A stretch of DNA of 63,504 nucleotides, filler included, from Basidiobolus ranarum (taxonomy: Eukaryota), in assembly GCA_040143965.1 (NCBI GenBank). It is 17 parts of 17 records of this genome, joined end to end, with 100 filler letters (N's around TTAATTAATTAA, not from the genome) between each part and the next. Parts side by side here need not be neighbours in the genome. Positions count along the whole stretch, not along the records: positions 41,193 to 44,830 come from JASJQH010009241.1; 16 more parts are not named here. The stretch is one strand, 5' to 3'. Both the position numbers and the translations under genes were made by a program. Positions 7,504 to 56,037 of the stretch are shown here, one piece after another. Position 1 is the first letter of the stretch. Each line of letters begins with the position of its first letter. The notes beneath the pieces were generated by a model. The model did not search any database and was not told the origin of the DNA. It worked only from the letters and a program-made list of their open reading frames with translations.

Positions 7504-9202
7504 CCAATGTCAAGCAAGATGGTCATTATTTCTTGCCAGTTTTGATTTTTTAATTACATATCAACCAGGTAGCCAGCATGGAAAACCTGATGCCTTATCA
7601 CATAGAGCAGAATATCAGCCTAAAGAAGGGGATGAGGCCTTTAGCCAACAAAATACTTCCTTACTGAAGCCCCACCAACTTCAAATTAGTGCAACTCCCC
7701 TTTCTCTGCCTAGTTCAAGTATATTCCATGAAGACATCCAAGAATTTCAATCTGAAGACCCATTGGTAATACCAATCTAGAAAGCCCAGGAAGCACCAAA
7801 GACCTCTCAAGCTTGAACTTGTACCACCATTTCTCTATCATCAATGATCTCTTTACTTTATAAGAAGCATTTACATTCTAGACCACATTTTCCACTCAAA
7901 ATCATGCAGGAAAAACATGACTATCACTAGCAGGACACTTTGATGTTACCAAATCATATATGTTGGCATCCAGAGATTATTGGTGGCCCAAAAAGTTTGC
8001 ATGTGTCAAGACTTATGTTTCCACCTATGATACTTGTGCTTGGGTAAAGACTAAAAGACATCAGCCCTATGGCCTCCTACAGCCACTTCCAATTTGTGAT
8101 GAGCAGTGGAAATCCATATCCCTGGATTTCATAACTTATCTACCCTTGTCTGCCAAATATGATTCAATTCTGGTAATTGTTGACCATCTAACAAAGATGG
8201 CCCACTTTGTGCCCTGCAACAAGTTAATCAATGCATAACCAACAGCAGAATTAGTAACTCAAAACATCTTTCACCTACATGGACTTCCTGAAACTATCAT
8301 CTCTGACCAATGACCTCAGTTTGCTTCCAAATTCTGAAAATTCTCCTCCATACCTTGGGTATCTCTGCTGGTCTCTTCACTGCCTTCCGTCCTAAATCTG
8401 ATGGCCAAACAGAAAGAGTCAATCAAGTTTTGGAATAATATTTGCAATGCACTATCAACTATAATCAGGATAATTGGACACAACTCTTGCCTCCTGCTGA
8501 ACTTGCTAACAACATCTCTTGTCATACATCAACAAAACAAATTCCTTTTTTGGCAATTATGGATTCCATCTATGTTTCACAATTCACCCACCATCCAATC
8601 TACCTGGCCATACTGCCTCAGACATTGCCACTTTCCTTAAAGACATCCATAAACAATTAATATCTGAGTTGGAGCATGCTCAATGCCAATACAAGAACTT
8701 TGCTGATAAGAAAAGAAAGCCCAGCCCAAATCTCAAGCCAGGTGATTATGTTTGGCTACTCCGGAAAAATATCAAAACCACTAGACCTTGTGCTAAACCT
8801 GATCATAAAAGATTAGGGCCTTTTAAGATTATTAAGCAAATGAATTCAGTAGCCTTCTGCCTTGAACTCCCAGCCTATTTCAAAGTCCACAATGTATTCC
8901 ATGTGTCTCTCTTAGAGCCACATGCTAGAAACACCTTCCAGGGCCAATCCATTGACCCACCCCAAGCAATCACAGTGGAAGAACACCCTGAATATGAAGT
9001 TAGCAAAATTCTAGATTCCAGAATTTGACAATGTAAATTGCAATATTTAGTGGACTGGAAGGGATACCTATCAAATGATCAATCATGGGAGCCAGCAACA
9101 AATCTTTCCAATTTGAAGGAACTTTGCCAGGAGTTTCATGAAGCCTATCCAAAAAAACCTGGCCCTATGATGTCTGGAAGCCATCACTCAAGACAGGGAT
9201 AC
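7504..9202 (+). mobile_element. Degenerate Ty3/Gypsy chromovirus pol: end of RNase H, integrase and chromodomain
   Basis: Motifs YWWPK, GLLQPLPI..WKSISLDFI, IVDHLTKMAHF, HGLPETIISD, GPFKIIK..LELP..HNVFHVSLLEP, and chromodomain EYEVSKILDSR..YLVDWKGY..SWEP. Many stops and frameshifts. Confidence 0.93.
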
Positions 9203-41317: not shown

Positions 41318-42180
41318 TTCATATGTATGGTGATGGATTAAATCAATTCCCATATGAGAGTTGACAGGGAGAGCATCATGTTGCTGTAGCACAAGTACAG
41401 CATTTTCAAGCTCTTGTACTATTATTGAGTGGCTCACTAACTGCTGACTAGTTGCTTCAGAACACTATAGTAATTGCAACATTGCAGCATCATTGCTTGT
41501 CATGGCCTGCATAGCAACTTTGTATTTTTTACTTATGATTGCACACAAATTATTATACTGTTTTGCCTGAGACTCCCTTGTTGTATTAGTTATATCCAAA
41601 CTTTTTATGGAGGGTTGTTTGATAGTTGGCAAAGTCACCATTGTGGTAGTTGACAGTCTTGACAGTATTTTTGTGGGAATTTGTTCAAATATTTACTTAC
41701 TATGTAACTGGGGGATTACAATCTCCTCACTTGCAAGATTACTGGAGAGGAACATATCTAGTAAATAGACTGATGCTTCATCACTACTTGTGTTAGTTTC
41801 TGGCAAGTTAAAGCCTTCTAAAGTGGATAGTGGATTGCTAGACTACTCATTGATTAAGTTGTCTGTTCTTCCTGGTTCTTTTCCTTAATGGAAGAAGCAT
41901 TGATTATTGAGAAGTGGATAGTTTCATCCAATCTTAGCAACCAGGTGTTTATTGGTTTTTTTAAGCTTTTACCACAGTAGATTGGCAACTGTTGCTTGCC
42001 ACAGACCTGATACAAGTAGAAAATACTGCTCAATTGTATGACCTCCAATCATTCTGTAATTAAACTACCTTCATGGCCAAATGGTTGTGTGGCTGTCATC
42101 ACTGATCTGAAAAGCCAGAAGTCATGTACTGTTTGAATACAATTGGCAATCACTGAAGCAGGTAAATATCATCTGTATTT
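41318..42180. mobile_element. Internally deleted CACTA-like copy in reverse orientation
   Basis: 41320-41860 is the reverse complement of ~45870-46410. 41870-42180 is the reverse complement of ~55480-55790. Confidence 0.65.
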
Positions 42181-44438
42181 AGCTTACTTACCATTGATTC
42201 CCTGAATCAAAGTTTTGATGAAAGCACTCAAATAGAGCACTAACAAAGAAAATAGCAATTAGATCCAGATTGGATCTACCCTTCCAAATCATAAAACATC
42301 AGAGGACCATCACAGTAGTGGCAACATGCATCCTGCCAGGTAATATGATGGTGAGGCAGTGGCTTCTTGATGGTATTTTTATGGTATTCATATATATTAA
42401 AATATTGATCCTCATATTTGGAATGCATTATTTAATTTCCAGCACTTTTCACAAAAATCTATTTTTCAAACAGCAAAACACCAGGTTTACTGCTGTAGGA
42501 ATTCAAATTACTATGTGTTACTGAATGTACATATTTTTGGCTTTGTACTCCAACTATAATGTGATCAAAAACACAAGAATCTTGCTATATTTAGTCTCTA
42601 CATAAGCACATACTTGACTGATCAGACTTAACTCAACAACATCAGTATGCATTACCAGCAAGTAAATGGTGGAAAACTTGCTAAACTTCTGAAATTTTGA
42701 TTAGTACTGACACTAGCCAAATAGCTGACTCTGCCACCATTCACAACAAGAATAAGCTCTTGATTTTGGCAAATTTCCGTTAATAATTCAGCCAAATATC
42801 CCTAACTTGCAGTCAATAAATACCCTGCCACAAGTAGATGAGTCATTGCTTGAACAGATTACCCCATGGATTAAACAAGAATCATGTGCATTGTGATCAA
42901 TTGCACCAAGAAGTCTGTCTTGCAGCTTTCCTAGAAATACTATCAGCTTGTCATACATGCAAATTAGTCCAATAATACAGAGGTACTTGCCATGTGTCCA
43001 TGGATTGACTTTTGCTGCTATTATTGTGCTCAAACAATGCAAAAACCCATGAACACATTGAAATGAGCTATTTGTTGGAAGGTTAATGTACTCTGGAGTC
43101 TCCTTGACCCTTTGCATCATATTCTTCACTCATTTTGATGATATATCATTAATCAGAACAGCATCTAATTATACTGACAATCTCACATGGTGCATCATTT
43201 CACCTAGGTGTGCTACATTGGGAGCTCCTGGAATATATAGCAAGGGCCTATAATCTCTAAGCATTGTGAAAGATGCAGCAGGGAATGTATTGAATACTGG
43301 AATAAAGTCAGTCTAACTTCTTTAAACCTGTAATACAGTTTTTCATATCCATTTACAATATCTTCATGCAGTTGCTGCATCTGCCTGAGATCAGCCAATG
43401 TGAGTTGATGCCATATGATTATATTAACAATATCCACAAACAACTCTCAATGTTGCCAATACTTATCAGGCAGATATCCTTTGATAGTTCCACTTGAATA
43501 TATACAAACCCAATACTTCCAGCCTTTGCATTTGATTAAATGCCTTGACAAGTGGATAGTGATAGGAGTCTTGGTAAAATATGATGGTATCTTGATGTTT
43601 GCAAGTGTGTTCCCAATCAATTCAACTTTGATCCTATCTTGAATGGCTGATTCATATTAAATTCTCCACTATATAGCTGAGTAAATAGTAATAGGATGTT
43701 GTTGAATAGTAAGTGCATGGTGCCTGATGGGAAGCCCTGGCTCCAGCTGATCCCTTTTGGCAATATAATCTTGGGCTTAAAGCTAATATCATGTTTGATG
43801 TTAGACTAACTATTTAGTGAATTGACATCAGTCAGCATGTTGAAATCTTACCAGGCTCTTGATGGTAAAGTTGTGGAGCTCAGTGCTGTATTTGGATTGT
43901 AGTAATGTGTATGACTGATAGAGTAAACTCCATTGATTTGACAGAACCTACAGTAAGACAGTGCATTGAGCTTGCAAAAACCTCCAAGCTTACTGATGGC
44001 AGGAGTGTCACCAATACGTACAATGATATTAAATTTAATAAAATATTCACCCATATGAACCCCATCAGATAACCATTCAAATTCCACCATCAAAGGCTCC
44101 ATGAAGCTACCTATAATCAATGGTGATTTAGGTCCAGATACAATGGATAGTATTGAAACACTATGACTCTTATATTGTTCACAAGGAGAAAGATTTGTGT
44201 TAATTAAAACTATCGGCCAACAACCCTTTCTGATGTTATATATGTTAAGTGGAAACCATCCAGAGCCAATTCAAATATTTGATCATACGTGTTCTCAAAG
44301 AAACCTTGACTTTTCAGATTCTGGTAGTGATATCCATCTGGAATCTGGGTAATACCATTAGTTTTATGGTGAGTACTTTGGTATTGTATCAATGATCTAA
44401 TTTTAGGTGATATCATCAAACCTTTAAGATGGGGAATC

Positions 44439-44720
44439 TATCGAATTTATTTAGGGAGAAATATTGGTCTGACCAGGATTTTAACCTGGGACTTCCTTCA
44501 CTCTAGCAACATGCTCTAACCACTAAGCTACAAGTCCTTGTATGCTATGCCTATATTGCTAGGGAACCTTAACCTAGTCTGTTGATGTATTGTACTTTTG
44601 CATTTCTGCTATACCAGCAACTGATTAGCCTTAGACTTTGTGTTCAGATGCAGTCATCATACTCCATAATTTCCTCTTTGGGAACTACTACTTCTACCAC
44701 AAGTTACCAGACTTTCAACA
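44439..44720. mobile_element. 282-bp solo-LTR-like insertion with 5-bp TSD GAATC, containing a tRNA-like sequence
   Basis: GAATC lies at 44434-44438 and 44721-44725. Termini are TATCGAA...TTCAACA. The homologous empty site (one GAATC) is at ~55474. Confidence 0.85.
44465..44537 (-). ncRNA. tRNA-like sequence (degenerate, nominal anticodon AGA) inside the insertion
   Basis: 73 nt: GGACTTG TA GCTT AGTGGTTA GAGC A TGTTG CTAGAGT GAAGG AAGTC CCAGG TTAAAAT CCTGG TCAGACC A. D and T stems pair and A/B boxes are recognisable. Acceptor and anticodon stems are imperfect. Confidence 0.75.
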
Positions 44721-44930
44721 GAATCAACAGTATGTAAGCCAAACATGAACAATATTTTCCTGATTCAGTGATTGCCAGTTGTGTGCAAACAGTACATGAC
44801 TTCAGGATTTTCAGATCTCCAGTGCAAGCCNNNNNNNNNNNNNNNNNNNNNNNNNNNNNNNNNNNNNNNNNNNNTTAATTAATTAANNNNNNNNNNNNNN
44901 NNNNNNNNNNNNNNNNNNNNNNNNNNNNNN

Positions 44931-53081: not shown

Positions 53082-56037
53082 CCCGTAACAAAAATGAAAT
53101 CAATTTGATATGAATTGGATCTACCAATCTAAATTGCAAATCCATCATAGAACCATCACAACATTGGTGGCTTGCATTCTAGCAGCAATTTTGATGGTGT
53201 GTCAGTGGCTTCTTGACAGTATTATGATGGTATTCATATATGTTGAAATACTGGTCCTCCTATTTGGCATGTGTTATTGGACTTGTTCTCAGTGAATGTG
53301 CCAGATTGTGCTGTACATGGCATATTGAATAAATTATTCTAAAATTTATGTGGCACAATTTTGCACTATCCATCACATCATGCTCTGGCATGATCAGTTT
53401 CAATCACATTTACTCTAATACATTGATCCAAGGTCCAATAAATCCTAACACAATGGAACAAGTCCATTTATTTCTGGAAATTTTTACAAAACATATTTTT
53501 CAAATGTTAAATCACTGGGTTTACTGCCATGGGAATTCCAGTTAATATGCATGCCTTTATTTAGATTTCTTAGTCTTTGTATTCCTGCCATAACAAGAAT
53601 CAAAAAATACAAGAATCTTGTTGTGTTTAATATCTAAATATGCACATACATGACTGATCAGAAATAACACTACAACATCAGTATGCCTTACCTGCAAACT
53701 AACAGTGGAAAAATTGCTAAACATCTGAAATTGTGAATAGCATTGACACTTAGCAAATAGCTGACTCTTATTACTGTTCACAATGAGGATAAGCTCTTGG
53801 ATTTTGGCAAATTTCCATCAAGAATTCAGCCAATATATCCCCATCTTGCAGTCAACAAATGGCCTGCCACAAGTAGATATGTCACTGCTTGAACAGACTA
53901 CCCCATGGCTAAAACAATAGTACTGCATATCTTGATCTATCTTACTAAGAAGTCTGTCTTGAAGCTTTCCTAGAAATACCATCAGATATTTGCAGAAACA
54001 AAGTAGTCCAAGTCATAGAGGTAATCATGTTGTGTCCAAGGATTGGGCTTTGTTGCTGTTTTTGTACTCAAAAAATGCAAAAACCCATGAGCACATTGAA
54101 AAGAGCCCTTTATTTGAAGGTTAATTTACTCTGGAGTCTCCTTAACCCATTGCACTACATCCATCACTGATTTTGCTTATACATTGTTAATGAGATTTGC
54201 ATATGGTAATACTGATGACTTTACATAGAGCCTCATTTCACCACAAGTGTGCTCCATTACAAACTCCCAGAATATATAGCAAGAGACTATGATATCAAAG
54301 CAATGTGAAAGATGCAGCGGGGAATGTATTCAATACTGGCTTAGATTTGATCTATCTTCTTTAAACCAGTTATAGGGTTTTTCATATGCAATTACAAAAT
54401 CTTTGCACAGTTGCTGTATCTGCTTGAGATCTGCCAATGTGAGTTGATGCTGTAAGAATATGTTAATCATACCCACAAACAACTCCCAATGTTGCTAATA
54501 CTTATCAGGCTGAAATCTTTTTAAAATTCCACTTGAATATATATAAATTTAATACTTCCAGTTGTTGCGTTTGAATAAACACCCAGATGAGTGGATATTG
54601 ATGGGAGTCCTGGTTAAATATGAAAGTATCTTGTTGTTTTCAAGCATCTGTCCAATTGATTCAATCTTTGATCCTATCTCAAATGGCTCATTCATATTGA
54701 ATTTTCCACTATATAGCTGAGTAAGTAGTATTGGAATGTTGTTGAGTAGTAAGTCCATAGTGCCTAATGGAAAGCTCTGGCTCCAACTGATCCCCTTTAG
54801 CAATATAATCTTAAGCTTATGGCTAATACCAAGTTTGATGTTAGACTGACTATTTGGTGAATTGATATTAGTGATCATGTTAAAATCTGACCAGGCTCTT
54901 GATAGTAAAAGCATGGAGTTTAGTTTTGTCTTTGGATAGTAGTAATGTCTATGCCTGTTAGAGTAAACTCCATTGATTTGACAAAATCTAGAGCAAGATA
55001 GTGCATTATGCCTGCAAACACCTCCAAGTTTACTGATGGCTGGAGTGTCACCAATACATCAAATGATATTAGCTTTAATAAAATACTCACCCATCTGAAC
55101 CACATTACATAACCATTCAAAGTCCACTATCAAAGGCTTCAAGAAACTATCTATAAGCACTGGTGATTTAGGTCCAGATATGATGAATAGTATCAAAGTG
55201 TTATGACTTTTATACCATTTGGAAGGAGGAAGATATACATTGATTTTAATTATTGGCCAGCAAGCCTTTCCAATGGTACATTTGTTTAGCAAGAAACCAT
55301 CCACAGCCAATGCATACGCATGATCATACATGTTCTCAAAGAAACCTTGACTTTTCAGATTCTGGTAGTGATATTCATGAAGTATATTGGTGATTCCATC
55401 AGTTTTTTGGTGAGTACACTGTATTGGATCAATGAACTATATTTGGGTGAATTCATCAAAACTTTAAGATAGGGAATCAGCAGTATGTAAGCCAAAATGC
55501 ACTACATTTCCTCATTCAGTGAGTGCCAATTGTGTGCAAACAGTGCATGACTTCAGGTTTTTCAGATCACTGGTGAAAGCCAAATAACCATTTAGACATG
55601 GAGGTAGTTGAATTACTGAAGCATCACATGTCATATAGTTGACAAGTGTTTTCCACTTGTACCAGGTCTGTGGCAAGCAACAGTTGCCAATCAACTATGG
55701 TAAAAGTGTAAGAAAACCGGCAAACACCTGGTTGCTATGATTGGATTGAACTCTCCACTCCTCAATATCAAAGCTGCTTGCTTTACTGTAAGTGTTAAGA
55801 GTGGACTAATGCTTGCCAATAACAAAGTGTCCATAACAAAACCATCATCTTCTTCAACTTCTGAAATACTACCATCAGTCCTGGAATAACCCAGGTCAAC
55901 ATCTAGCAGCAAGTCCTCAAAGTTGTCTGGACTTACTGGTTTGACCAAAGTTGCATTTTGACCTACATCATTCTGGTCATATAACTGTGGTAACTCCACG
56001 GTATCTTGACTTTTAGCAGTGTTACCAAAACTTTGAG
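53082..56037 (-). mobile_element. CACTA/EnSpm-like transposon left half with degenerate transposase
   Basis: Starts CCCGTAACAAAAAT. Remnants: ALAVDGF..CWPIIKINVYLPP..ISGPKSP..DSFLKPLIVD and GDTPAISKLGG. Colinear with 42238-44830. Confidence 0.85.

Follow-up and report, generated by a model that had tools for sequence, protein, structure and literature searches.

A Putative Helenus-like Solo LTR with a Decayed tRNA-like Module in a Degenerate Transposase of Basidiobolus ranarum

A 282-bp insert that interrupts a degenerate tnp2-family transposase of Basidiobolus ranarum is best explained, with a probability of about 0.65, as a Helenus-like solo LTR of the TRIMp3 type, which lies on the minus strand and is present as a single copy. 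Helenus elements are TRIM retrotransposons harboring tRNA-derived sequence in their LTRs (Kojima 2024, PMC10886601), and this kind of element, the tRNA-bearing TRIM LTR, has accordingly been known since 2024. Its presence in Basidiobolus, outside Basidiomycota, may be new, and among the publications listed by literature searches, none reports elements of this sort from Basidiobolus or from zygomycete fungi in general, as judged by titles and opening lines of abstracts.

Insertion in a Degenerate tnp2-Family Transposase

The window, that is, the whole stretch of 63,504 bases that was analyzed, is composed of 17 contigs of 3,633-3,652 bp each, which are ordered by length and separated by N44-TTAATTAATTAA-N44 spacers. 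Its G+C content is 37.7%, its CpG observed/expected ratio is 0.44, and the mutual ties among its repeat-rich contigs consist of shared repeats only. A VTC4-type protein encoded on the last contig is 100% identical to a protein named Basidiobolus ranarum and shows 86-87% identity to other Basidiobolus proteins. The insert is located on contig 12 (41193-44830), and a paralogous tnp2 copy is carried by contig 15 (52404-56037); since the window is made of joined contigs and is not a continuous locus, the paralogous copy at about 55474 belongs to another contig.

The two contigs align at about 80% identity across some 2 kb, covering the degenerate transposase, and the alignment breaks exactly at 44439-44720, where contig 12 holds the 282 additional bases. 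The original prediction, which had described a 282-bp insert in a CACTA transposase, bounded by a perfect GAATC target-site duplication (TSD) and with its empty site visible near 55474, was confirmed in all these respects. GAATC was found on both sides of the insert, a single GAATC was present at the paralogous position, and Pfam PF02992 (Transposase_21) was matched by two of the six host ORFs tested (E 3e-8 and 7e-9). In addition, a second empty site was recognized on contig 12 itself, in a paralogous copy of inverted orientation. The features of the insertion site are as follows.

43848..44437, minus strand: host, degenerate tnp2-family (CACTA/EnSpm-type) transposase reading frames beside the insert (Pfam PF02992, E 3e-8)
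44434..44438, no strand: left copy of the 5-bp TSD GAATC (single GAATC at both empty paralogous sites)
44721..44725, no strand: right copy of the 5-bp TSD GAATC (alignment with the empty sites)
55474..55478, no strand: empty site with a single GAATC, in the paralogous tnp2 element on contig 15 (paralog alignment)
42196..42200, minus strand: second empty site with a single GAATC, in the inverted paralogous copy in contig 12 (paralog alignment)

The two empty sites are independent of each other, and under the base composition of the window a duplication matching at 5/5 positions precisely at the borders of the indel would arise by chance with a probability of about 0.0013. One insertion event brought the tRNA-like module described below inside the duplicated borders.

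For the host transposase ORF, one relative was retrieved, with 69% identity. Elsewhere in the window, a contig that has a repeat in common with the host element carries a Ty1/copia element (RVT_2 E 4e-63; rve E 1.5e-8), the presence of which indicates that candidate mobilizers exist. The LTRs of this Ty1/copia element were not found on its contig, and the relatives of its reverse transcriptase ORF are distant, reaching at most 54% identity among the best 120 of 7302 matches. The window also contains an RVT_1 reverse transcriptase ORF.

Layout of the Insert

Read on the minus strand, the insert can be divided into a unique upstream stretch, a tRNA-like module and a short tail, which are listed below together with the motifs that they contain.

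44439..44720, minus strand: 282-bp insert read as a solo LTR, with its 5' end at 44720 and its 3' end at 44439 (absent from two paralogous sites; Helenus-like layout by eye)
44712..44720, minus strand: LTR 5' terminus TGTTGAAAG with TG start, element positions 1-9 (from the sequence)
44538..44711, minus strand: remainder of the unique U3-like stretch (38% G+C)
44465..44537, minus strand: tRNA-like module of 73 nt, element positions 184-256, suggested to serve as Pol III promoter and R-like region (Rfam RF00005)
44520..44530, minus strand: box A TAGCTTAGTGG, fitting TRGCY..YGG (motif as given in PMC10886601)
44476..44486, minus strand: box B-like GGTTAAAATCC, with GGTTA where Helenus and tRNAs have GGTTC (from the sequence)
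44439..44464, minus strand: 26-nt U5-like tail ATATTTCTCCCTAAATAAATTCGATA, element positions 257-282, with TA end (from the sequence)

The unique sequence upstream of the module amounts to 183 nt (element positions 1-183; 38% G+C). The element begins with TG and ends with TA instead of the canonical CA, and the longest T-run in the 26-nt tail is TTT, so that a Pol III terminator-like run of at least four T is lacking. As an inverted repeat, the two ends agree at 5/7 positions (chance about 0.017) and at 7/12, the match stopping after 7 nt; the inverted repeats of some 10 nt or more that a TIR DNA transposon or MITE would be expected to have at its ends are absent. The ancestral termini TGTCGAA...TTCGACA that had been suggested for the element are a conjecture, in which just one of the two assumed changes is of the CpG type. 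An internal repeat search of the insert returned only pairs of 8-20 nt, none of which flank the tRNA-like module. A nested insertion with a duplication of its own was considered and rejected, as no repeat brackets the tRNA-like part.

As the insert is a single copy, accompanied in the window by no second LTR, PBS, PPT or internal region and standing there as a solo unit, we infer its LTR status and its TRIM status from this layout. A blastn search of the insert against the window (62 kb) returned the insert itself and 23 matches of at most 41 nt, all with E of at least 0.049, and thus no second copy; no similarity to the contig bearing the reverse transcriptase emerged from blastn within the window. 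PBS-like and terminus motifs occur across the window at chance-level frequency. Scans of metagenome contigs with a 21-nt box-B/acceptor stretch, and with a degenerate T-arm-plus-tail pattern that also covers Helenus-4-like LTRs, gave 0 matches each.

Strength and Decay of the tRNA-like Module

A 73-nt cloverleaf-like sequence on the minus strand, 26 bp from one end, with A and B boxes, an AGA anticodon and a short variable loop had been proposed from the outset, and this description holds. Rfam RF00005 matches 44537..44465 with 35.9 bits, the gathering score being 29, and the module lies 26 nt from the insert end at 44439. It is the sole match above any Rfam gathering score in the 63,504 bases and the sole tRNA among the seven Rfam matches at E<=5 in the window, where no weaker tRNA-like relics were detected elsewhere at that threshold. 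ARAGORN reported no tRNA at the module under default settings; under relaxed settings, and under these only, it yielded a cloverleaf with anticodon AGA and a 5-nt variable loop. The two boxes fared differently: box A is intact, whereas box B is devoid of the conserved C of GGTTC.

The cloverleaf obtained with relaxed settings contains two mismatches in the acceptor stem and two G.G oppositions in the anticodon stem, and the predicted fold of the tRNA-like RNA is no better than that of shuffled sequences (z -0.26, with 71 of 200 shuffles equally good). Paired stems and acceptance by a default tRNA finder, which characterize a functional tRNA gene, are both wanting; the module derives from a tRNA but has decayed, and it does not represent a tRNA gene. 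Since box B lacks the conserved C, mismatches occur in both the acceptor and the anticodon stem, and no T-run of at least four follows, the present copy of the element looks dead and is, judged by its sequence, most likely an inactive relic. The GGTTA of a single decayed copy cannot speak for the consensus of a family.

A dimeric element, or a further tRNA head at the 5' end, was also evaluated. With introns allowed and relaxed scoring, ARAGORN formed pairs at 6/7 positions between AGTCTGG at the 5' terminus and the 3' acceptor strand. The 5' part aligned to the tRNA-like unit with a score of 24, which is the chance level (22.3 +/- 4.0 for 300 shuffles), and Rfam revealed neither a second tRNA-like match nor a 5S match in 44300-44800 at E<=10. 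This candidate was rejected on the basis of the shuffle-level alignment and of the lack of a second Rfam match.

Comparison with Helenus

Fungal Helenus comprise 113 families in Pucciniales together with members in Agaricus, Coprinopsis and Amylostereum; they generate 5-bp TSDs, are probably mobilized by Copia elements, and frequently persist as solo LTRs with 5-bp TSDs on both sides (PMC10886601). LTR copies far exceed internal parts, for example 418 versus 32, and the TSD is 5 in every fungal row examined in Table S1 (PMC10886601). The box A of Helenus is described by TRGCY and YGG, and its box B by a conserved GGTTC (PMC10886601).

Part 1 of DataS1 contains 26 complete consensus sequences of fungal LTRs, all of which start with TGT, many of them with TGTTGA, and the sense tRNA-like part is situated in the 3' portion and followed by a short T-rich tail (PMC10886601). 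Their 3' ends are CA in 23 cases and, like that of the insert, TA in three, namely LTR-1_PGr, LTR-1_PSt and Helenus-10_PTrit, and 'tgttgaaa' occurs 10 times in DataS1 (PMC10886601). The fungal LTRs span 111-269 bp in the Table S1 rows examined, and Helenus-4_PSt has about 284 by hand count (PMC10886601), which puts the 282 bp of the insert at the top of the length range seen in these rows.

All comparisons with the published Helenus consensus sequences were made by eye or by hand and carry no statistics. The insert shares with Helenus the TGTTGA start, a sense module with box A in the 3' part that is succeeded by a short tail, the 5-bp TSD (GAATC on both sides, with two empty sites), occurrence as a solo LTR, and a length on the LTR scale. 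Moreover, tRNA-derived sequence is present inside the LTR-like unit, scoring above the Rfam cut-off and lying within the TSD borders. The start of the insert and that of rust-fungus Helenus are similar by eye (TGTTGAAA), as is the tail motif. In Helenus-9_PSt and Helenus-6_PTrit, the anticodon loop CTAGAGT is identical to that of the insert, with AGA and a short variable loop, and about 50 of 73 module positions are held in common (hand alignment, unscored). Similarly, unscored hand alignments gave agreement at 21/24 positions between the T arm of the insert and that of Helenus-4_PGr, and at 14/19 between the first 19 nt of the insert and Helenus-3_PGr.

The insert differs from Helenus in its host, which is Basidiobolus and not a member of Basidiomycota, in its box B, which reads GGTTA instead of GGTTC, and in the missing T-run after the module. 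Twelve 10-mers drawn from its 183-nt upstream stretch were looked up in the published Helenus consensus sequences, and none of the twelve was found in any of them (PMC10886601), so that the insert is not a member of a described Helenus family.

Comparison with Other Elements

Cassandra of plants and Ajax of nemerteans are TRIMs whose LTRs contain 5S rRNA-derived sequence (PMC10886601). They resemble the insert in having a Pol III-type small-RNA module within the LTRs of a miniature LTR retrotransposon and in the 5-bp TSD; the module is 5S-derived in these elements, whereas that of the insert is a tRNA according to Rfam, without any 5S match. One of the twelve upstream 10-mers mentioned above was found only in two Ajax LTR ends (PMC10886601). 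The original prediction had named Cassandra, with its 5S RNA, as the precedent; this is superseded by the tRNA-bearing TRIM LTRs that were published in 2024, fungi included (PMC10886601). With Helenus in print since that year, the underlying idea was right in kind but not new.

The insert and tRNA-derived SINEs (SINE2) have in common a tRNA-derived module with A and B boxes in a short non-coding insert. Such SINEs carry a tRNA-related head at their start and an A-rich, simple-repeat or LINE-derived tail at their end. The module of the insert, in contrast, lies internally, with nt 184 of 282 as its first position, and the tail ATATTTCTCCCTAAATAAATTCGATA is neither A-rich nor a simple repeat and matches no other contig of the window. 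The solo sigma LTRs of Ty3, which adjoin resident yeast tRNA genes, offer another parallel, displaying a TGTTG-type LTR end, a 5-bp duplication and a physical association of an LTR with tRNA sequence. The yeast tRNA genes stay outside the duplication, whereas in the insert the duplication encloses the tRNA-like part, which moved along with the element.

Alternative Explanations

Each of the rival explanations fits fewer features than the Helenus-like solo LTR does. The insert might be an ordinary solo LTR in which a tRNA-derived SINE or a retro-copied tRNA settled close to the 3' end, an event confined to this copy or the one from which it directly descends. The reception of such a sequence by an LTR is the very event that has been proposed for the origin of Helenus families (PMC10886601), and a single copy cannot separate a family feature from a copy-specific event. 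This explanation is nevertheless judged unlikely, given that neither a duplication nor a tail brackets the tRNA-like part, the internal 8-20-nt pairs not being placed as flanks, and that the position and orientation of the module and the length of the tail are those of the Helenus LTRs consulted. A SINE-like non-LTR retroposon, moved by a LINE and having a degenerate tRNA-like head 7 nt from its minus-strand 5' end in addition to the better unit near its 3' end, would find some backing in the intron model of ARAGORN, with its 6/7 pairing of AGTCTGG to the 3' acceptor strand, and in the RVT_1 ORF of the window. The tRNA similarity of the 5' part, at 24 against 22.3 +/- 4.0 in 300 shuffles, is however that of chance, and no second tRNA-like Rfam match appears even at E<=10. 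As the good A and B boxes begin only at nt 184 of 282, as the tail is neither A-rich nor a simple repeat nor a T-run, and as the insert bears no similarity to the contig with the reverse transcriptase, this origin is considered very unlikely.

Still less credence is given to a MITE, a miniature cut-and-paste DNA transposon, whose terminal inverted repeats would be very short, whose duplication would be 5 bp long, and which would contain a tRNA-derived piece by chance. The 5/7 match of the ends as inverted repeats (chance about 0.017) would agree with it, but the inverted match stops after 7 nt and the asymmetric layout is LTR-like; we know of no fungal DNA-transposon superfamily in which short terminal inverted repeats, a 5-bp duplication and a tRNA piece are combined. 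The least probable of the explanations weighed is that of non-mobile filler DNA from break repair, for instance a fragment with a decayed nuclear or organellar tRNA gene. It would be in line with the single copy in the data examined and with the acceptance of the cloverleaf by the metazoan-mitochondrial mode of ARAGORN, and it would leave the exact 5-bp duplication, the TGTTGA end and the LTR-like layout unexpected.

Proposed Mechanism

Under the preferred reading as a Helenus-like solo LTR, a two-LTR TRIM with PBS and PPT would have been reverse-transcribed and integrated in trans by the reverse transcriptase and integrase of an autonomous element. If fungal Helenus are taken as a guide, the mobilizer would probably have been of the Ty1/copia type, a maker of 5-bp duplications. 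Recombination between the two LTRs would then have left one LTR between intact duplications. RNA polymerase III may be recruited by the A and B boxes of active copies. The transcript would begin near the 5' boundary of the tRNA-like module of the 5' LTR and stop just beyond the module of the 3' LTR, so that the R region would correspond to the tRNA-like stretch and U5 to the tail.

The functional roles that had been put forward for the module can be viewed in this light. An LTR/TRIM family with a captured Pol III unit agrees with the layout and the TSD, both of which fit Helenus, and the features ascribed to a family are drawn here from one copy. A role as internal Pol III promoter accords with the view taken for Helenus (PMC10886601), though the present copy looks inactive, and that of an insulator is without evidence. 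A role as self-encoded primer is disfavored by analogy, because no complementarity to the PBS was found for the tRNA-like part of Helenus LTRs (PMC10886601).

Implications

The consequence at the present locus is small, for it concerns a dead element within a dead transposon. Helenus-type elements inflate tRNA gene counts: in Puccinia triticina, 481 of the 492 predicted tRNA-Thr-AGT are Helenus LTRs, and in rust fungi some tRNA types are mostly made up of such sequences (PMC10886601). Annotators of Basidiobolus genomes should hence expect tRNA-like pseudo-hits that stem from such elements.

The screen of Kojima took Repbase LTRs as its starting point and was confined to the genomes of relatives of known hosts (PMC10886601), and for this reason the absence of Basidiobolus from the list is not evidence of absence. 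The most far-reaching view, in which Helenus-type elements exist in a zoopagomycete fungus, is regarded as decidedly unlikely. If the reading as a Helenus-like solo LTR is confirmed, the range of the tRNA-promoted miniature LTR retrotransposons (TRIMp3) would be extended from Basidiomycota to an early-diverging fungal lineage, which would support the repeated recruitment of Pol III modules into LTRs. An age of about 130 My has been proposed for the Pucciniales Helenus lineage (PMC10886601). If the resemblance of the module to that of rust Helenus reflects homology and not convergence, tRNA-promoted LTR retrotransposons would be far older in Fungi than that, or would have moved horizontally between distant fungi.

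Inverted duplication of the insertion site

In the tnp2-type host element, which is interrupted by the 282-bp insert (a putative solo LTR), the region spanning the insertion site is present as an inverted duplication of approximately 100-350 bp with 80-82% identity, represented by two pairs:
41886-42237 versus 55437-55785, pair 1
42104-42200 versus 44721-44817, pair 2

This duplication, which supplies the second empty site for the insert, may represent long inverted repeats lying subterminally in the transposon. At 44715-44732, the plus-strand end of the insert together with the target-site duplication (TCAACAGAA) is almost repeated by the end of the target-site duplication together with the flank (TCAACAGTA); the 6 nt of microhomology that the LTR end shares with its target probably arose by chance.

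Other retroelements and window composition

Retroelement sequences, one of them next to a tnp2-like stretch, were also recognized elsewhere in the window:
26580-29633, Ty1/copia pol with rve integrase and RVT_2 reverse transcriptase domains
29634-29875, tnp2-like stretch abutting this pol, with 87-89% identity to a portion of the tnp2 elements on contigs 12 (carrying the insert) and 15 (carrying the paralogous copy)
22492-23565, plus strand, RVT_1 reverse transcriptase C-terminal region
8510-9028, plus strand, Tf2-1-like SH3 domain

The Ty1/copia pol is truncated at ~29633 with tnp2-like sequence directly beyond, a junction that looks like nested or recombined transposons; no LTRs of this element were found on the same contig. 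The last two entries are further retroelement remnants, the former possibly from a non-LTR element and the latter of the type with which Ty3/gypsy integrases end. Additionally, a 320-aa open frame (25171-26133, minus strand), overlapped by a 144-aa frame on the opposite strand, gave zero Pfam matches at E<=0.001.

The window (1-63504) consists of 17 separate, size-ordered contigs of ~3.63-3.65 kb each, joined end to end through N44-TTAATTAATTAA-N44 spacers (e.g., 44831-44930), and therefore features on different segments are without physical linkage. Over the whole window, the G+C content is 37.7% and the CpG observed/expected ratio is 0.44, a base composition which suggests cytosine methylation.
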